Numbered from the stretch's first letter, positions 8,266 through 47,851 are shown. The stretch: DNA of 64,000 bases from a virus (IMGVR_UViG_3300031555_004710:172672-236671); one strand, 5' to 3'. The notes: generated by a model from the sequence alone, not told the origin. Translations and numbers: made by a program.

Positions 8266-9141
8266 ATGCAAGGGAACATAAAAGGAAAATTTAAAGTAAT
8301 AACACTTTGCGGTTCAAGTAAATTCAAGAAAGAATTTATAGAAGTTGCAGAAAAACTTTCATTGGAAGGAAATATTGTAATTTCATTAGGATTATTTGGT
8401 CATGCTGATAATAAGTTTGCTACAGTGATAACTGATGATGTTAAAGCAATGCTTGACGCAGCGCATAAACAAAAAATTGAAATGTCTGATGCAATTTATG
8501 TAATAAATCCAGGAGGATATATAGGAGACTCAACTAGAAGTGAAATAGGTTATGCAATTAATCTTGGAAAAGAAGTTCATTTCTTAGAACCAATAAAAAG
8601 TATTCAAAAAATCGGTGATATATATAAAGTTATTACTGATAATGATACTCTTGATTCACCTGGAGATCCTATGAATAATGATATTATTACGTATAAAATA
8701 GATGATTTTAAGTATTTTGATGATTTATGTTCATTCTATAGAAATACACCAAAAGAAGAAGTTATAGATAAAAATCTTTTATTTAGAATAACTGCATCTG
8801 GTGGATATGATTATCGTAATAAATATATCGAAGAAGACGATCTTATAAAACCAATTATTGTAGATGGTTTATTGACTTGGATTAAAATACCATTATCATT
8901 TGATGGATTATCATTGTCGACTAGTTTCAAAGACCTTTGTGAAACATTTAATCCACATATACACATGGCTAAATTTGGTAAAGTTTATCAAATTATAAAG
9001 GGTGGAGGAAAAGATTATTATGGTGAGCCTATAATGGATGGTGATTATTTAACATATCATGATACTAAAAAAGGAGTTTATGCATGGAGTAAACTCCACA
9101 GTAAATTATTGGAGGTAATACAAAATGAGCAAATCAAATAA
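8266..9141 (+). CDS. Protein with N-terminal nucleoside deoxyribosyltransferase-like (DUF4406-type) domain
   Basis: ITLCGSSKFK...HKQKIEMSDAIYVINPGGYIGDSTRSEIGYA pattern; promoter motif at 8230-8244. Confidence 0.55.
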   Translation: MQGNIKGKFKVITLCGSSKFKKEFIEVAEKLSLEGNIVISLGLFGHADNKFATVITDDVKAMLDAAHKQKIEMSDAIYVINPGGYIGDSTRSEIGYAINLGKEVHFLEPIKSIQKIGDIYKVITDNDTLDSPGDPMNNDIITYKIDDFKYFDDLCSFYRNTPKEEVIDKNLLFRITASGGYDYRNKYIEEDDLIKPIIVDGLLTWIKIPLSFDGLSLSTSFKDLCETFNPHIHMAKFGKVYQIIKGGGKDYYGEPIMDGDYLTYHDTKKGVYAWSKLHSKLLEVIQNEQIK

Positions 9142-13443: not shown

Positions 13444-14202
13444 GTGATATTTATTATGACAATTGCTGAATATTTACAAAATCCTTATGGAAAAGGCTCG
13501 GCATTTTCGTCGAGCTCAAAACAGAAAGATGATTTGGATAAGCAATTTAAACAAATCTCTGAAAAGATAATTTCAAAAATTTATCGTTATCGTGATTTTG
13601 TTATATATCATGTAATCGTTCCTAGTACCAAAAAAGACTTTGTTAATTATGATGTAGTAATTGAAGTAGAAACAAAGAAACTTCATGAAGGAGCAGCAAA
13701 TTTGGAAGGACTTGAATTTAAAGTATTCTCAAATTGCCCTTCATTCATATTTACATATGCACATGTTTTTAGGGGTAGTGGAATGTTATGTGACTGGCTT
13801 CTTCCTAAATATAATAAAGAAGTTAGGACAAAAGCTCCAGTTAAACGAAATCAATACGGTATCGTAGGCTTAGAAAGAAGTGTGTATTTAGCACTTAAGC
13901 ATTTACATGCTAGTGGAAAAACCCATTTTGGAGTTTATCAAACTGCTGGAAAGAAAGTTCATGGTAGAAATGAGATTATTAATGCCGTTAGAACTCAGCA
14001 GCAAATTATGGATAGGGTTAAGGAAAAAATTCCTGCACATAAAGACCCTTCAGCATTTAGTCCAAAAACAATTGCTACAAATCCCCATGCCAATAAAGAT
14101 AGGACAACTCGAACTACAGTTTTTACAAAATCTGTAAAAAATATAAAGAGTGGAAAAATGACAAAAAGTACAAAAACATCAAAAACGACGAAAAAAATAT
14201 AA
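13444..14202 (+). CDS. Conserved-looking hypothetical protein with basic C-terminal tail (putative late)
   Basis: 252-aa ORF, AACA-N6-TA at 13412-13423. Confidence 0.7.
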   Translation: MIFIMTIAEYLQNPYGKGSAFSSSSKQKDDLDKQFKQISEKIISKIYRYRDFVIYHVIVPSTKKDFVNYDVVIEVETKKLHEGAANLEGLEFKVFSNCPSFIFTYAHVFRGSGMLCDWLLPKYNKEVRTKAPVKRNQYGIVGLERSVYLALKHLHASGKTHFGVYQTAGKKVHGRNEIINAVRTQQQIMDRVKEKIPAHKDPSAFSPKTIATNPHANKDRTTRTTVFTKSVKNIKSGKMTKSTKTSKTTKKI

Positions 14203-28318: not shown

Positions 28319-28500
28319 TTATTACTCCCCCTTTCTATATTTTGGGATTCTAATCGTTCATTATCAAAATTGTTAAAATATAGAAAAATAGAAATTAATT
28401 TTCAATCATATATTATTTTAATGGTGTAGAGTAATAAATTTGAGTTTATTAAAAATGGTTAATTTAGAGACAGAAATCTCACTGTCAATTAAAAGCGATT

Positions 28501-29670
28501 ATGAAAGGAGATATAGCAATGAAATTCTTCACAAAAGTTATTAAATTTGTAAAGAAAGCATTTCGTGCAATTGCAAAAATGTTTAAAGATAAAAATCCTG
28601 TTGAAGTAATCAATGATGTTACAAAAGCATCTGTTGCACTAGCTACAACTGGATTAGCTTTATATACAGGAGTTAATGCTATTAGAGTGCATTTTGCTCC
28701 ATCCACAAAGAAGAATAAAAATTACAATGGTAAATCTGCTCACGAAATAATATTTGAAAATCGTAATGCTGGTTCCATTGATGAAAAACTTGCGACTATT
28801 AGAAAGAATAATTCTAGAATAGGCAAAAAGCATTCCACCACAATAAAATCAGAGGATTTGAAAGTTCTCGAATCTATTGCAAAAACCAGAAATAGTTTCT
28901 TCCAGAGTCTGTCTGCGGAAGAGCAAATGAATGTCCTTGAAATGGAGGATTTTGATTTTAAAGCATACTCAAAAGAGATGAAAAAGAAATCACGTTTTTC
29001 ATTATTTGGGAATAAAAAGTGTTCTAAGAAGCTAGGAGTTTCATCTACTAATAAAGCTTTTCGTGAACCTGTAAATTATGGATTCTTTAATTTCATTTTA
29101 CAGCCAATTGACGACTTTATTCATTGGATAAAGAATGACCCAGTTCCAAAGAAGGTTCCTCAGATTCAAGTAATTGAGCATCCTGAAATTCCTAATGTTC
29201 CTTGTGAGACTGCATTAGATCTAGTTTCTACTGCAAGAAATTTAGAATCCTATTTGAGTCATAACAAAACATTATCATCAGAATTTAATGTCACAACTCC
29301 AGCAGAGAGTGAAGAACAACAAATTCTCGCAGATGAAATATTTAGACACAAATCTTTATCAAAATTCAAAAGGGCGGTGAATAGATGTATGGCACAGTCT
29401 AATTTTAATACTCCAAACATCTTTGATTTAATGGACGATGACAAAAATTTTAAGAAAAAGAAAAAGAATAAAAAGAAACATTCCTACGATGATGATTTTT
29501 CGTTCATGGATAATGACAAACCTAAGAAGAAAAAGAAAAAAGGTATGAGTAAAGAAGATCGTGAAGCTGAAAGCATGGCTGATAAACGAGCAAAAGAATT
29601 ATATAGATACCATTTAGAAAAAGCAATGAAAGGCGAATTTGACAGAAAAGGATATGGATTTGACTTTTAA
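28501..29670 (+). CDS. Hypothetical lysine-rich protein (putative early)
   Basis: 389 aa, promoter at 28409-28423, terminator downstream. Confidence 0.7.
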   Translation: MKGDIAMKFFTKVIKFVKKAFRAIAKMFKDKNPVEVINDVTKASVALATTGLALYTGVNAIRVHFAPSTKKNKNYNGKSAHEIIFENRNAGSIDEKLATIRKNNSRIGKKHSTTIKSEDLKVLESIAKTRNSFFQSLSAEEQMNVLEMEDFDFKAYSKEMKKKSRFSLFGNKKCSKKLGVSSTNKAFREPVNYGFFNFILQPIDDFIHWIKNDPVPKKVPQIQVIEHPEIPNVPCETALDLVSTARNLESYLSHNKTLSSEFNVTTPAESEEQQILADEIFRHKSLSKFKRAVNRCMAQSNFNTPNIFDLMDDDKNFKKKKKNKKKHSYDDDFSFMDNDKPKKKKKKGMSKEDREAESMADKRAKELYRYHLEKAMKGEFDRKGYGFDF

Positions 29671-29790
29671 TTTGAAATCTTAGGAATATTTGCAAATATC
29701 CCTTACAGGATAATAAGAGAGAACTATCAGAGTTCTCTCTTATTTTTTATTTCGTAATAATAAATTTTTTTATTGATATATTATTATTAT

Positions 29791-30154
29791 GAGTAAGTAA
29801 GATTATAATGGTCGGGTGACTCTATAAGTTCTTGCGGAGATAAACATCGGTAAGATTGGAAATCTTGGGATGTCCGGGGAATGACTAGATACCATTATCT
29901 TAAGTGCAATAATCTATCCACCCAATGTCGATACCAGGCAGAGGGACTAGATTAACACCGAGGGTATTCTTATAATGTTAATTTATAAGAATCATTCAAT
30001 CAATAAACGAAAATAGTCGATAATAAGTTGGCAGCTTGCATTGACCACCATACTCAATGCAATACGGAAACCAACTTGACAATCTTCTATAAGTCCATCG
30101 AATATTGAAAGATGATTCAAGTAGATTAATATTTAGAATACTCTCTTACTGCTC
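29791..30154 (+). ncRNA. Putative structured ncRNA (~364 nt), family unknown
   Basis: Early promoter motif 29777-29791; 5' GAGTAAGTAAGA pairs with 3' TCTTACTGCTC; several internal helices; no ORF; downstream T-run. Confidence 0.7.
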
Positions 30155-30184
30155 GAAAATCTAATCTAATTTATTTTTTTTTTC

Positions 30185-30293
30185 AAAAAAATATATGAAG
30201 CGAAATCACGGGATTTCGCTTCATATATAAAAGGAGTAGCTAATGAGCATGACAATAGAAAAAACACATTAAAGTTCAAAAACTTTACGACTT
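30185..30293 (-). ncRNA. Putative late small RNA with anti-Shine-Dalgarno seed
   Basis: AACA-N6-TA at 30293-30304 (minus), 5' hairpin 30270-30287, seed CAUUAGCUACUCCUUUU, terminator hairpin 30191-30228 plus U-run. Confidence 0.5.
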
Positions 30294-30328
30294 ACTTTAT
30301 TGTTATATAGATTTTGCATTATTATACA

Positions 30329-30628
30329 CTATAGTTCATCTATATGAGGACCAGTAATAGTACCATACCAAGCTACTTTACCATCAGTAGTCGTCTGTTT
30401 ACCATAAACTTCCTCACAAATATATTCTTGCTCATCTTCAACTTTAATAACTGATTCAGTGTTATTATTTTTTTCTTTTCTTTCCTTTAATGCTTCTATT
30501 CCCATTTCTAAAGCTTCGATATATTTTTTGACACCATGATCTTGATATCTCTTTTCATATCCTCGTTTTATAAAATCGAGAATATAAATAGCCATATCTT
30601 CATTAGGGCACATTTTATATTCACTCAT
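30329..30628 (-). CDS. Small hypothetical protein
   Basis: AGGAGG RBS; EALEMGIEALKE motif common in small phage proteins. Confidence 0.7.
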   Translation of the reverse strand: MSEYKMCPNEDMAIYILDFIKRGYEKRYQDHGVKKYIEALEMGIEALKERKEKNNNTESVIKVEDEQEYICEEVYGKQTTTDGKVAWYGTITGPHIDEL

Positions 30629-30646: not shown

Positions 30647-30988
30647 TTACCACCATGAATAAAATTCTTGATTCTCTTCATTACCTCTATAAGTCTCAAC
30701 TTCTTCATTTCTTACAATTTTTCCATCCTTAAGAATAAATCCTTTTTTACCAGAGTTTCTGAAATCATATATTTTATATGCTTCAGCGTATACCTGCTCT
30801 TCAATACCCAGTCTCCTTGCAAAAAGTTGCAATTCATAAACTTGGTCAAGTAGCCATGATGAATGATTCTTATCTTTTTTATTATAAAACCATTCATCTG
30901 CTCGCTTTTGTAAATCTGCAATCTCTTTTGCAAATTCTTTTATGATAGTTTTTCTTCTTACTAAAAATTTCATGTAAATAACCTCCAT
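30647..30988 (-). CDS. Small hypothetical protein
   Basis: GGAGG RBS before MKFLVR. Confidence 0.7.
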   Translation of the reverse strand: MEVIYMKFLVRRKTIIKEFAKEIADLQKRADEWFYNKKDKNHSSWLLDQVYELQLFARRLGIEEQVYAEAYKIYDFRNSGKKGFILKDGKIVRNEEVETYRGNEENQEFYSWW

Positions 30989-31108: not shown

Positions 31109-34042
31109 ATGTCTTACTTTACAGTAAGTTTAAGTGAGCTTCTCAGTAATTCTCATATATCAGCAATGGAAGCTAAATCGGAGCCAATTGAAATAATATC
31201 CAAAGTTGAAGATCCGGATGTATCAATGGCGATAGCTCTCATTACTGATAATATTATAATGAATTCAAATTTGAAGCCAGTTACAGATCCAATTGCTCAC
31301 AGTGCTGGAGGAATTCCAACAGATGGTGGATTATTTTCTGATATAATATTTGGCAGAGACCCAGAGTCTAGGCAGAGACAATTTGCGTATATTGATCTTC
31401 ATGAAAAGTTCTTTCATCCATATGTATACGAAATATTAAAAGCATTAATGCCAAAAAGATTTGAAAAATGTGCTCATGGAAGTGGAACGTCATGGAAAAT
31501 TACAAACGATGGTGAATTAGTTGAAGTTAAAAAGGGAAATGCCGATTATAATGAAGATAATAGTGGTATAGCATGGCTTATAAAAAATTACCATAAATTA
31601 AAATTTTCTGAAACTGGTTCTATGATAAGAGGAGATAGAATTAAACTTCTAAAATCTCTTTCAGATAATGAAATATTTATTACTAAATGGATTGTAGTTC
31701 CGATTGTCTATAGAGATATTGATAAAAATTCAAGTATTCATAAATTACCGGAACTAAATACTCATTATAATAAGATTATTCAATATGCTAATAGTCTTAA
31801 AGATGCGACATTTGATTTCTTTAATAATCAAATTAGATATAATCTACAGCAAGAATTGATAATAATTCGTAAATATGGTCAGAGTCTTATTGAGAAGAAA
31901 CATGGGTTTTTCCATAAAGCAATTCTAGGTAAGTCAATAGATAGAGGTTCTCGTGACGTAATCTCTGTACCAACGATGACTAACTTGCAGAGACCTGAAG
32001 ATAATCCTATTGATATTTTTCATAGTGGAATTCCTCTTGCAAAATGTCTTATTCTTGGATATGATTTTGTTTTAAGATATTGCATCCAATTCTTCGCTGA
32101 TAACTTTAGAAATGTAACAGAATATCCCGTGCATAAATTAGTTAACGGTGAGTATAAAATTGTAGGTTCTGTTAAAATAAAGAATCAAGTTGAAAAATTT
32201 TCTTCCGATTATATAAAGAAGAAAATTAATAGATTCAAAAACTCATATGGAACTCGTTTTGAATATATTATGATTGAGACAGAAGACGGTCAGGAAATAC
32301 CTATGCATTTATCTGGCCAGTTTGCACCTATGTCTGAGACAAAACCTATGACATCTACTATTATAAATCGTCCTATGACTTGGACCGATTTGTTCTATTT
32401 AGCTGCAGAAAATACTTTAAGTGATAAGTATGTATATATAACTCGTTTCCCAGTTACTTCTCATAGTAGTATTTTCCCATCTCAATGTAGAGTATTATCT
32501 ACAATTAAAACTATCCCAGCTTATATAGATGGTCAATTTTATAAGTACTATCCTTATATTGATTTAAATACTCCAAAGGATAGAATTTCTAGTGTATTCA
32601 ATGATACAGTTACAATGTCAAATATGTATCTTGCTGCACTTGGTGGAGACTATGATGGTGACCAAACTGCTCAGAAATTATGTTTCTCTATTGAAGCAAA
32701 TGCCGAAGCAAAAGAGATTGCTGAATCTGTAAGAAACTTTGTTTCTCCTGAAGGAAAATTACTACGTACTCTTGGAAATGAAGCATATCTTACATTCTAT
32801 AATATGACTAGAGATAAACCATCCGGAGGTATCTTGTCTAATGAACTTAAGAAAGAATTATTAGCTCTTAAATCTAAAGAGCTTACAATTAATAAAATTG
32901 CTGACCTTTTTGGTAAAACTACATCAATGAATAGTAAGGATAAAAAATCTGTATTTGATGTAAAGGAACCAAAATTTAATCCTCAAGCTAAATTTACTTT
33001 ACAAGCTGGAGAGTATATTAATAAAGAAACTATTACCACTACAGTCGGTATTTTCTTATTTAATAAACTTCTAATTGAAGGGTTACTTGAGGATGTGGTT
33101 CCTGGTGGTTATTATAATGAAATTTGTAATAAAAAGAATTTCAGTAAATTGACTGATATGGTAGCATCTGCTATCATGAGTCAGAAAATTCAAATTAAGC
33201 CTACTTTAGTAGACTTTTTAAATGCAAATGAATTTTGGGGATTGGGATTAGTAGCTATTTTTGGCACTTCTTATTCCATGGAAACTATAGTTCCTAATAA
33301 ACAGTTAGAAGCTAAGAAAGCGGAGTTACTTAAGAATGCTCCAGATAATGACTTGGCTACGTTATCTAAAATAGAGCAAGAATTGATTAAAGAAGCTGAT
33401 AGATTAACTGAAGGCACTCCTGGTAAATTCTTATTTGATTCAGGTGCAAGAGGTTCTTTTAGTAATGACTTTAAGAATATGGCAATCAGTATTGGTCCTG
33501 TAGAAAATCCTATAACTGGAGAATTTGACTTCATGTCTTCTAACTATATGCAAGGTATTAAGAAAGAAGATATTCCTGCTGCTGCTAATAGTATACTTAA
33601 TGCTGAATATCCTAAAGCAATAGGTACTGCAAAAGGTGGTTACATGGGTAAAATCATGTATTCAGTATTCCAAACAATGGGAATTGATGAAGATGGAACT
33701 GATTGTGGTACTAATAATGGTCTAATGGTAACATTAACCAAAGATAATATAAGAGATTATTATGATCAATATATAATGGATGGAAAAAATCTTATTTTAA
33801 TAGATGCTTATCTTCCAGTAAAATATATGAATCATCCCGTAATGCTAAGAAGCCCAATGTATTGTATTAGTGATAAATTGTGTAGTAAATGTGCAGGCAA
33901 GAGATTCTATAAGGTAGGAATTACCGACATAGGTCTTACAGTACCAGCAATGACCGGTTCACTTATGAACGCACAATTGAAAAAAAGGCATAGCATGGAA
34001 GTTAAAATGCACTATATTGACGAGAATGAGATATTAAAATAG
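31109..34042 (+). CDS. RNA polymerase beta'-like subunit (putative virion RNAP), single polypeptide
   Basis: GGLFSDIIFG, ILGKSID..SR.VI, TRFP, GGDYDGD catalytic motif, SGARG, DCGT, RSPMYC..LCSKCAG; late promoter 31054-31065 and N-terminal SAME-A processing site. Confidence 0.9.
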   Translation: MSYFTVSLSELLSNSHISAMEAKSEPIEIISKVEDPDVSMAIALITDNIIMNSNLKPVTDPIAHSAGGIPTDGGLFSDIIFGRDPESRQRQFAYIDLHEKFFHPYVYEILKALMPKRFEKCAHGSGTSWKITNDGELVEVKKGNADYNEDNSGIAWLIKNYHKLKFSETGSMIRGDRIKLLKSLSDNEIFITKWIVVPIVYRDIDKNSSIHKLPELNTHYNKIIQYANSLKDATFDFFNNQIRYNLQQELIIIRKYGQSLIEKKHGFFHKAILGKSIDRGSRDVISVPTMTNLQRPEDNPIDIFHSGIPLAKCLILGYDFVLRYCIQFFADNFRNVTEYPVHKLVNGEYKIVGSVKIKNQVEKFSSDYIKKKINRFKNSYGTRFEYIMIETEDGQEIPMHLSGQFAPMSETKPMTSTIINRPMTWTDLFYLAAENTLSDKYVYITRFPVTSHSSIFPSQCRVLSTIKTIPAYIDGQFYKYYPYIDLNTPKDRISSVFNDTVTMSNMYLAALGGDYDGDQTAQKLCFSIEANAEAKEIAESVRNFVSPEGKLLRTLGNEAYLTFYNMTRDKPSGGILSNELKKELLALKSKELTINKIADLFGKTTSMNSKDKKSVFDVKEPKFNPQAKFTLQAGEYINKETITTTVGIFLFNKLLIEGLLEDVVPGGYYNEICNKKNFSKLTDMVASAIMSQKIQIKPTLVDFLNANEFWGLGLVAIFGTSYSMETIVPNKQLEAKKAELLKNAPDNDLATLSKIEQELIKEADRLTEGTPGKFLFDSGARGSFSNDFKNMAISIGPVENPITGEFDFMSSNYMQGIKKEDIPAAANSILNAEYPKAIGTAKGGYMGKIMYSVFQTMGIDEDGTDCGTNNGLMVTLTKDNIRDYYDQYIMDGKNLILIDAYLPVKYMNHPVMLRSPMYCISDKLCSKCAGKRFYKVGITDIGLTVPAMTGSLMNAQLKKRHSMEVKMHYIDENEILK

Positions 34043-34087: not shown

Positions 34088-34173
34088 GTATAAGTATTTA
34101 ATGAATCTGTTTTTATTTGTATATTATTTATATGAGTAATTAAATATATTTATTTTACTAAGGAGGAAAAATA

Positions 34174-39177: not shown

Positions 39178-39254
39178 TGGTCCGAGTAGCAGGATTTGAA
39201 CCTGCGGCATCCTGCTCCCAAAGCAGGCGCGCTACCTAACTGCGCTATACCCGG
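39178..39254 (-). tRNA. tRNA-Pro(UGG)
   Basis: Cloverleaf CCGGGTA/TACTCGG, anticodon stem CCTGC-TTTGGGA-GCAGG, GGTTCAAATCC, encoded CCA. Confidence 0.97.
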
Positions 39255-39260
39255 AATTAA

Positions 39261-39336
39261 TGGCTGGGATGGTTGGATTCGAACCAACGAAATGCAGGAG
39301 TCAAAGTCCTGTGCCTTACCGCTTGGCTACATCCCA
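39261..39336 (-). tRNA. tRNA-Gln(UUG)
   Basis: TGGGATG/CATCCCA, anticodon CAGGA-CTTTGAC-TCCTG, GGTTCGAATCC, encoded CCA. Confidence 0.97.
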
Positions 39337-46862: not shown

Positions 46863-47691
46863 GAGTAGTAGAATAAATATATTGGTTTTTAATAAGTTTT
46901 ACATATATAGGCGTCGTGTATCTATTACTCCATGTTGATGAAAACTTTAGACGAGGATGGCATGCTCGTTGACTATGATGGTGATAGGGAAAGTCACATA
47001 GTTGCACTATAAATATAATGGCCGCATGTGGCGTGGATCAAACGTGGAGGGTCCGTCGTTATATTTATATAGTGAGCTCGGTTCTATCGTGGACTATCAC
47101 GTAGGACAGCATATTGATAGATAGGCTAGGTCGGTCATGTAATGTAGCTCAGTTTACTATATAGTCATAGAATAGACCTGAAAGTCTGAGCGGGCGAATA
47201 TTGAGTGGATAATCTATAATTATCGATGAGGCGAAATATCCCATGACAAAGGATGAGGTGTGGTCAAGGCAGAGAATAACTCTAGGCCTTGGTGTAATTG
47301 AAATTATAGTTATTCACTCGATTAGTAGCTTTAATTACCTTATGATACTTTTATAATACTTATTGCCACATTTGAGTATTATTTAAGTTATAAATAGATA
47401 CCTGAAGTTGCCTAAAGTCTGAAATAAACATTTCAGAAGACAAAGCACGCCAAGCTAAGCGAGTATCGGACTTAGTGGGTTACCGAGTTTCCTGATTGGA
47501 TAGTATACTAAATGACCCTGTTGTACGAAATGGTATCCATCAACTATATTAAAAAATAAATTTATTTAAATATTATGTACTTATAGTTGATGAAAATACT
47601 CGGCGCCATAATAGTGATATTATGGGAAAGTGACTTCTGAGGGGAGGTCACTATATATAAAAACTGTATATAATTTACTTCTTCCCACCTC
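46863..47691 (+). ncRNA. Putative giant structured ncRNA (~830 nt)
   Basis: Early promoter 46849-46863; no credible ORF over 1 kb; visibly GC-richer than flanks; terminal pairing and more than 12 helices readable by eye. Confidence 0.8.
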
Positions 47692-47820
47692 ACTTTTATA
47701 TATCGATACTATATAAAAGTATTATACGTTATGATTTCCTTCTTCCTGGAATTTTATCCCTATTCCAGTGTTTAATCATAATGTATTATTAAATGGTAAA
47801 TTATATACAATATAGTTTTA

Positions 47821-47851
47821 GAGAAAGTATAAAGGGTGCTTTCTCTTTTTT
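47821..47851 (+). terminator. Intrinsic terminator downstream of the large ncRNA
   Basis: GAGAAAGTAT-AAAGG-GTGCTTTCTC followed by a T-run. Confidence 0.7.

Follow-up and report, generated by a model that had tools for sequence, protein, structure and literature searches.

The question raised by this locus is what is produced from an early phage promoter that no protein-coding gene follows. The DNA analysed here (the window, 64,000 nt in full) covers bases 172672-236671 of a 236,671-bp IMG/VR virus record and has a G+C content of 29.7%. An earlier note on this sequence had described a promoter without a following ORF and a structured RNA starting from it. Inspection of the reading frames agreed with the former observation, as no ORF longer than 26 aa was found in the sense frames of the RNA, and none exceeding 42 aa occurs on either strand between the stop codon of the upstream gene at 29670 and the minus-strand ORF at 30329. 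Considering the evidence presented below, we concluded that the 29791-30154 segment of the plus strand is very probably the gene of a structured, trans-acting RNA of an undescribed family. The features of the locus are listed in Table 1.

Table 1. Features of the RNA locus and the candidate target transcript (positions in the window, except in the last line)
Feature	Position	Strand	Description
Promoter of the 389-aa gene	28408-28423	+	Early type, same motif as the RNA promoter
Upstream 389-aa early gene	28501-29670	+	Stop codon at 29670
Intrinsic terminator of the 389-aa gene	29712-29744	+	14-bp stem, then T-run
Early promoter of the RNA	29776-29790	+	ATATATTAT at 29776-29784; 6-nt spacer; G29791 is +1
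Structured ncRNA	29791-30154	+	364 nt, from +1 to the end of closing helix P1; ORF-free, GC-enriched
P1	29791-29802 with 30144-30154	+	5′ and 3′ ends paired
P2, ATAATGGT/ACCATTAT	29805-29812 with 29891-29898	+	Closes the 5′ domain (29805-29898)
"GG-bulge" hairpin, ACATC...GATGT	29844-29873	+	Conserved, inside the 5′ domain
Conserved junction UCUUAAGUGCAAUA and hairpin P3	29899-29958	+	GUG/CAC, then UAAUCUA/UAGAUUA, then inner hairpin
TAATCTA/TAGATTA	29910-29916 with 29948-29954	+	Part of P3
Long irregular 3′ arm, P4	29960-30145	+	From base helix to apical hairpin; in 9/9 independent MFE folds
P4 base helix, GAGGGTATTCT/AGAATACTCTC	29960-29970 with 30135-30145	+	Pairing probability 0.95, covaries
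AAGTTGG/CCAACTT	30025-30031 with 30071-30077	+	Surrounds hairpin TGCATTGA/TCAATGCA, whose loop is CCACCATAC
Apical module of the arm	30025-30077	+	Stem S1, asymmetric internal loop (CAGCU opposite AUACGGAAA), stem S2, C/A-rich 9-nt loop
Conserved loop CUUCUAUAAGUCCAUC	30084-30099	+	Consensus YURUAAGUCC; 3′ side of the arm, largely unpaired; 9/9 members
U-rich tail ending in T10	30155-30183 (T10 run 30173-30183)	+	U-run after P1 in every member
17-bp terminator hairpin	30191-30228	-	Serves the convergent minus-strand genes (99 aa, 113 aa); boundary of the RNA locus
Candidate target transcript	G000:C1:90713-91387 = L232:879-1553	-	155-nt leader, 173-aa ORF

Promoter, termini, and genomic neighbourhood of the RNA gene

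The early promoters of phage AR9 have an experimentally defined consensus, AAATATATATTAT-(6N)-G+1, and are read by the injected virion RNA polymerase (vRNAP) without new protein synthesis (PMC5312081). The promoter of the RNA fits this consensus, with ATATATTAT placed six nucleotides before the G at +1. Because the match is good, the RNA is taken to be an early transcript, and the injected virion polymerase would express it as in AR9. Ordinary genes of the window are preceded by this motif as well (at 34120 and 28408), and T[AG]TATT[AG]TT-N5-+1 lies at an equal distance from the start in all nine members of the RNA family described below.

The gene at 28408 is the upstream neighbour of the RNA, for whose 389-aa product neither Pfam nor PHROG nor the atlas gave a lead and only a poor fold was predicted. 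Since an intrinsic terminator lies between them, the mRNA of this protein is separated from the RNA gene; terminator-equivalent hairpins also stand ahead of the RNA promoter in three relatives (L010, L014, and L006). A conserved sequence similar to GGUGUAGAG stands at the start of the 389-aa gene's transcripts in every relative examined (L003:2715, L005:10629, L095:7820, L096:14542, and L219:10750). At the other side, the U-rich tail following P1 is the probable 3′-end region, and the true 3′-end may lie beyond P1, up to 30183. A terminator scan gave no canonical plus-strand terminator at the 3′-end of the RNA.

The 113-aa ORF beside the RNA (30647-30988, minus strand) belongs to a widespread family of small proteins (86 clusters) with an invariant IYDFRNSG motif. 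None of 79 loci encoding this family contains a copy of the RNA, thus the 113-aa gene is unrelated to it; many gut phage contigs have the family and lack the RNA. Among the flanking genes are those of a tail-tube-like protein and a 977-aa subunit homologous to the beta′ subunit of the AR9 virion RNA polymerase (approximately 33% identity). Among cultured phages, the window phage is closest to AR9/PBS1, BpSp, the Listeria phage LPJP1, Staphylococcus jumbo phages, and the Fusobacterium JD-Fnp phages, while the close relatives, showing 60-99% identity in the 977-aa subunit, are uncultured contigs throughout, originating from gut metagenomes where the record name gives the source. The hosts of this clade are gut bacteria, probably Firmicutes. 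Accessory genes near the polymerase gene in relatives encode a polyphosphate kinase, a Spo0A-like response regulator, and a GGDEF-domain protein (L097:7720-9852; L006:1377-2129, minus strand; L219:8304-8771, minus strand), of which the Spo0A-like regulator hints at endospore-forming Firmicutes as hosts. The beta′ gene, uninterrupted in the window (31109-34042), is split into ORFs of approximately 545 and 412 aa in relatives of 73-80% identity (L008:6001-10320, with the same layout in L010/L011/L012), where a GIY-YIG endonuclease gene on the opposite strand sits between the two parts; this arrangement looks like an intron or homing-endonuclease insertion.

Homologues of the RNA in related phages

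Contigs bearing homologues were fetched through the similarity of their 977-aa polymerase subunit. Eight homologues were collected from related metagenomic phage contigs, and all nine copies are 313-396 nt in length. The contigs of the relatives are available in ENA (ERZ27297683 k141_543197, ERZ964365 k127_100091, ERZ28575233 scaffold_538, ERZ28593828 scaffold_37, ERZ28613749 scaffold_1036, and ERZ24773536 NODE_24) and Logan (SRR28201448_196249 and SRR24018588_1215). The copy in L003 is 82% identical to that of the window, and 22 of the 100 predicted pairs are changed on both sides between these two sequences alone. An HMM and a covariance model built from this pair (R1) matched L010/L011 (77 bits for L010), L014 (45 bits), L006 (40 bits), L095, and L096, while the copies in L219 and L005 were identified from their synteny, promoter, and motif. 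A second model (R2), derived from the 3′ arm core of six sequences, recovered the held-out L219 copy with E = 3e-4.

Directly upstream of each of the nine copies lies the early gene orthologous to that of the 389-aa protein (39-70% identity). Beyond the RNA, the gene content varies between relatives, with either tRNA genes or convergent genes. Four of the nine members have type-II (Ser/Leu) tRNA genes immediately behind the RNA (L010:860-940; L014:7164-7249, minus strand; L095:9702-9884, two genes; L219 at approximately 8780-8870, minus strand), and no tRNA gene adjoins it in the window, L003, L005, L006, and L096. In three of those four (L010, L014, and L095), the tRNA is preceded by an AACA-N6-TA motif of late type. 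The tRNA genes of the window (Pro and Gln; 39178-39336, minus strand) lie 9 kb from the RNA.

Searches in a wider range of sequences gave no further member. No match to the RNA was obtained by blastn among 50,697 phage records; IMG/VR searched with 17-18-mers and the loop pattern gave chance matches inside ORFs (L002 and L015) or nothing, and the same collection searched with the neighbouring proteins gave no relatives. A pattern scan of GTDB yielded more than 120 chance matches, none confirmed by nhmmer. In the cultured phages AR9, BpSp, LPJP1, S6, and JD-Fnp1, R1 found no match, and the weak matches of R2 fell within annotated CDSs, while elsewhere in the genome of the window phage the family HMM had no match. 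In a more distant relative, L097, a GC-rich, ORF-free segment (13452-13791, minus strand) contains loop-like motifs (GCCAAUAUCGCC and ACGAGAGCC) resembling the apical module; both covariance models and nhmmer failed to detect it, and it may be a very divergent member of the family. So far, the RNA is known from a single clade of AR9-like jumbo phages of the gut, in which at least nine uncultured members carry it. As this clade has no cultured member, the RNA can be regarded as a marker for it.

The RNA folds into a four-way junction with a long 3′ arm

The MFE of the plus strand was -106 kcal/mol versus -76.9 ± 5.0 kcal/mol for dinucleotide shuffles (z = -5.77), and that of the complementary strand corresponded to z = -3.12. 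When the RNA was trimmed to the segment between +1 and the end of P1, z decreased to -7.35, and across the nine members it ranged from -1.3 to -7.4, the weakest value (-1.3) belonging to the AT-rich and degenerate L005 copy. Folding beyond shuffled controls, by which the earlier note had wished its RNA to be judged, was thus observed for the window copy (z from -5.8 to -7.4).

Single-sequence MFE folds of all nine members resulted in one plan, in which P1 closes a four-way junction carrying the 5′ domain, hairpin P3, and the long 3′ arm. The helices and the T-run reported before were all found in their places, and in the homologues, compensatory changes preserve these helices. Within the 5′ domain, the GG-bulge hairpin was seen again, built from other sequences, when L003, L014, L006, L095, and L219 were folded independently (MFE); helices 3-5 proposed by RNAalifold for this domain were discarded, as they were based on two sequences only and the independent folds favour the hairpin.

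Two further suggestions made earlier did not hold. The local hairpin ATTCTTATAA/TTATAAGAAT had been thought to compete with the base helix of the arm and thereby to define a second conformer. This hairpin is real; forcing it costs 13.9 kcal/mol, with an equilibrium probability of about 1e-8, and the base helix displaced in such a switch has a pairing probability of 0.95 and covaries, so the local hairpin is at most a co-transcriptional intermediate. The other suggestion concerned a larger, ORF-free and GC-enriched RNA of the window, the 830-nt RNA (46863-47851, plus strand), which has a similar early promoter and no Rfam match at E ≤ 1; the two had been proposed to share a similar 5′-end and possibly to form a joint RNA-based system. 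The likeness of the 5′-ends comprises just GAGUA and purines and is also found in ordinary early mRNAs (GAGTAAT at 34134), therefore it reflects the promoter class rather than a shared module, and the family HMM detected no shared module either. The two RNAs are complementary over at most 9 nt in a row, which is also the mode of the shuffled controls, and their duplex energy (-139 kcal/mol) does not differ from that of shuffles (-142 ± 8 kcal/mol).

Compensatory changes support the fold and the plus strand

In the model-fitted alignment of seven members, 92.9% of the cells pair, versus 37-43% after shifting the partner by one to three columns, though the percentage paired is somewhat inflated because the alignments were fitted to the model. 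In the same alignment, 74 of 100 pairs are changed on both sides, and none of 500 shuffles attained the observed values; in the core alignment of eight members, this applied to 12 of 15 pairs. Since the independent single-sequence folds and the match of the held-out L219 copy agree with these results, the covariation signal is considered real. The comparison of homologues, proposed in the earlier note as a check, thus spoke for its view of a functional structured RNA, along with the conserved promoter and synteny.

The changes are distributed over all domains. The sequence of P1 is almost wholly different between members and its pairing is always kept (AGUAAGA/UCUUACU, AGUGAGA/UCUCACU, CAUAGG/CCUAUG, AAUGUGA/UCACAUU, GGAGA/UCUCC, and AGUAAU/AUUACU), all six pairs of this helix (helix 1) being changed on both sides. 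The same was seen for six of the eight pairs in P2 (helix 2), 12 of 17 in helices 6-8 belonging to the P3 region, and nearly every pair in helices 9-17 of the 3′ arm. G-U and U-G pairs together number 46 versus nine A-C and C-A combinations, an excess indicating that selection acts on the plus-strand RNA. As the stems are kept only as pairs and a few unpaired stretches are kept as sequence, the RNA would act in trans through a defined three-dimensional fold.

Comparison with known RNA families

At the gathering score, Rfam 15 identified two tRNAs only in the window, and nothing relevant was found at E ≤ 10 in the 29600-30350 region or at E ≤ 1 in the whole window. In four homologue loci, the matches were limited to tRNAs and one unrelated fragment of a group I intron; the latter is a partial RF00028 match in L006 (1-162, plus strand; 30.8 bits, E = 4.6e-4), truncated where the locus ends. 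ARAGORN found tRNA-Pro and tRNA-Gln in the window and no tmRNA. The lack of matches at these permissive thresholds, both in the window and the homologues, is in line with the former view that the RNA belongs to no known family, and no description of such an RNA was found in Rfam or in the papers searched.

The exclusion of RNase P RNA and tmRNA, which the earlier note had based on missing sequence elements, proved correct. The RNase P RNA models (RF00010/RF00011) had no match at E ≤ 10 at the locus, at E ≤ 1 in the window, or in the four homologue loci. In RNase P RNA, CR-I (GAGGAAAGUCC) follows P3 and pairs with CR-V (ACAGAA..GGCUUA) near the 3′-end to form P4. The single AAGUCC of the present RNA starts at nucleotide 298 of the 364, and nothing of the GGCUU type follows it. 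Because this motif lies near the 3′-end rather than after P3 and has no GGCUU/ACAGAA partner, the order is wrong and the P4 topology of RNase P RNA is absent on either strand. Neither Rfam nor ARAGORN recognised a tmRNA, and the tRNA-Ala-like ends and the tag reading frame are absent. A group I intron was rejected since RF00028 had no match at the RNA, the upstream ORF has its own stop codon and terminator, and there is no downstream exon. GOLLD and ROOL gave no covariance-model match even at E ≤ 10 or below the gathering score. The 6S RNA had no Rfam match either, and the four-way junction has no central bubble resembling an open promoter. A T-box or riboswitch leader is contradicted by the lack of a co-oriented downstream gene in the window, the varying downstream neighbours in relatives, and the absence of an Rfam match.

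A conserved loop and a candidate mRNA target

The most conserved unpaired loop of the RNA is CUUCUAUAAGUCC, located on the 3′ side of the arm. The element (CUUCUAUAAGUCCAUC at 30084-30099) is retained even in L006, whose apical hairpin is lost, and the AAGUCCA core is predicted to be unpaired with a probability of 0.73-1.0. Examples of its variants in relatives are GGACUCAUAGAA (L010), GGGCUUAUGAAAG (L014), and GGAUUUACGGAAG (L095). Conservation in sequence is also seen on both sides of S2 (AAUACGGAAACC and GGCAGCUU) and at the junction (UCUUAAGUGC / UCUUAAGUGCAAUA). The AAGUCC loop is most likely the business end of the RNA.

A sequence complementary to this part of the RNA was noticed post hoc in the phage genome, outside the window. 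The early promoter at G000:91387 (minus strand; ATATATTAT-TATAGT-G) defines a transcript starting with GGACUUAUAGAAGA, the +1 to +14 positions of which are the perfect 14-nt complement of the RNA segment UCUUCUAUAAGUCC. The transcript encodes a very acidic protein of 173 aa with an Asp/Glu-rich tail, for which no known family was found, and the first 15 nt of its leader are predicted to be single-stranded. When the RNA was shuffled 1000 times with its dinucleotides preserved and compared with 96 early-promoter-like sites, 8 of the shuffles gave a complementary run of at least 14 nt. According to the RNAduplex energy alone, the target site ranks only at approximately the top 0.2% of random 25-mers. 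We regard the match as a lead rather than a finding, and this mRNA as a speculative and rather improbable target.

Three other readings of these sequences were discarded. The second-best R2 match in the same genome (91335-91391, E = 0.38) had suggested a paralogue of the RNA and consists only of the 14-nt match itself. The target leader does not match purine or 2′-dG riboswitches in Rfam, and its motif identity to P1 of the Mesoplasma florum aptamer occurs by chance (PMC2900595). A specifier-codon (T-box-like) reading, in which AGU or UCC of the loop would correspond to the anticodons of the neighbouring tRNA-Ser/Leu genes, was inconsistent among the members.

Proposed function and its alternatives

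As a whole, these data are best explained by a new family of early phage ncRNAs whose arm presents the AAGUCC loop for recognition of mRNA 5′-ends, an explanation that we favour tentatively and hold to be slightly short of evenly probable. If AR9 is a guide, transcription of the RNA from its own unit by the injected virion RNA polymerase would begin right after infection. The pairing of the ends in P1 closes the four-way junction with the 5′ domain, the hairpin, and the rod-like 3′ arm, which may present the AAGUCC loop CUUCUAUAAGUCC as a recognition site. The loop could then clamp the extreme 5′-end (GGACUUAUAGAAGA) of the mRNA of the 173-aa acidic protein, and clamping would control the stability or translation of this mRNA. 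Capture of an RNA 5′-end is our preferred concrete mechanism, one that taken by itself is doubtful. Its more general form, a new class of large structured riboregulators in which a four-way-junction RNA captures the triphosphorylated 5′-end of a specific early mRNA, and where the partner in related phages could instead be a tRNA anticodon or other part of a tRNA, seems still less likely. Against an antisense role, the covarying architecture of 365 nt far exceeds what a simple antisense regulator needs. The loop is kept across phages whose RNA polymerases are only about 60% identical, and binding of a protein or a structural role would account for this at least equally well.

Such a structural role would be that of an architectural RNA of the GOLLD/ROOL type, forming an RNA-only or RNA-protein particle, perhaps multimeric, that acts on tRNAs or the translation apparatus, with the conserved loops making tertiary or intermolecular contacts. 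This, or a related role connected to tRNAs, ranks next after 5′-end capture, and is unlikely but well worth considering: the RNA is phage-encoded and ornate, it combines covarying stems with conserved unpaired loops, and in four of nine members it is immediately followed by type-II tRNA genes. GOLLD and ROOL, whose function is not known, are likewise phage RNAs found near tRNA islands, and form cages via kissing loops and A-minor contacts (bioRxiv 10.1101/2024.12.08.627333). However, no similarity to them was detected at E ≤ 10, the RNA is half their size or less, a self-complementary conserved loop was not seen, and the window copy has no adjacent tRNA. Moreover, as the neighbouring tRNA genes stand behind late-type promoters and the RNA behind an early one, their vicinity does not imply co-expression. 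The early promoter class would suit a decoy or sponge, produced by the injected polymerase as soon as infection begins, that binds a host protein such as a ribonuclease, an RNA-sensing defence protein, RNA polymerase (in the manner of 6S RNA), or an RNA chaperone. The level of host mRNA drops strongly during infection by AR9 (PMC5312081), hence early functions in host takeover are to be expected, and loops conserved in sequence on a stable scaffold, one of them kept across distant relatives, could serve as binding sites. This possibility comes next in our ranking and is somewhat less probable than an architectural role, since no K-turn, 6S-like central bubble, or CsrA-type GGA array was recognised, no 6S match appeared in Rfam, and there is no candidate partner, the always adjacent 389-aa protein having no assigned family.

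Two remaining explanations are unlikely. The size of the RNA and its multi-helix junction with conserved junction nucleotides would suit a ribozyme, either self-cleaving or a free-standing catalyst resembling an intron or RNase P; AR9-like phages are rich in group I introns, and AAGUCC recalls CR-I of RNase P RNA. Nevertheless, no ribozyme or intron model matched the window or the homologues at E ≤ 10, flanking exons are missing, and the P4 topology is absent in either orientation, which makes catalysis quite improbable. The least probable explanation is that no RNA gene exists here and the segment is a DNA-level element (an origin, packaging, or recombination site), part of a neighbouring gene's transcript (its leader or 3′-UTR), or what is left of a decayed mobile element. 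Its location between convergent units and the appreciable folding of the minus strand (z = -3.1) are compatible with this, but pairing is strand-asymmetric (46 G-U versus 9 A-C), the locus has its own conserved promoter and an upstream terminator, the downstream genes differ among relatives, one locus is kept in nine phages with compensatory changes, and neither attached repeats nor an endonuclease gene accompany it.

If the favoured explanation, recognition of mRNA 5′-ends by the arm loop, is true, an ornate fold would be coupled to sequence-specific 5′-end recognition, a mechanism undescribed for any ornate RNA. The family thus comes with a concrete target hypothesis that can be falsified. 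GOLLD, ROOL, and OLE are among the most puzzling genes of bacteria and phages, and each new family broadens the comparative base. The useful traits of the present one are its compactness (approximately 365 nt), clear domain boundaries, one outstanding conserved loop, and its link to the early programme of AR9-like phages, which the injected multisubunit polymerase reads.

Relation to known systems

In Bacillus, RoxS acts on yflS as a trans-acting sRNA that pairs at the extreme 5′-end of the mRNA and shields it from 5′-end-dependent decay; in Firmicutes, RNase J acts from the 5′-end. The RNA described here resembles this type of sRNA in that a loop predicted to be accessible is perfectly complementary to +1 to +14 of an mRNA presumed to be co-expressed. 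In contrast to typical sRNAs, it is three to four times larger, the site is an internal loop of the arm rather than a C-rich apical loop, and the target is a candidate only. With RNase P RNA and tmRNA it shares a similar length, paired ends, neighbouring tRNA genes, and, in the case of RNase P RNA, a motif recalling CR-I, whereas the CR-I/CR-V order and the P4 pseudoknot of RNase P RNA are absent. Like 6S RNA and the phi29 pRNA, it appears to be a stable ncRNA of the abundant type with a long irregular helix encoded near RNA polymerase genes and, as the pRNA, it is predicted to be expressed early; unlike the phi29 pRNA, it has no pair of complementary loops and no Rfam match.

The closest parallels are found with GOLLD (RF01998) and ROOL (RF03087), which are similarly encoded by phages in their own transcription units and have elaborate covarying structures with loops conserved in sequence; adjacency to tRNA genes is seen in four of the nine members. 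The differences are the size, 313-396 nt compared with approximately 580-800 nt, the simple plan of a four-way junction, and the occurrence, so far, in one phage clade. Large structured phage RNAs, often encoded near tRNAs, are therefore a kind already known, and what is new here is the family, the clade, and the promoter class.
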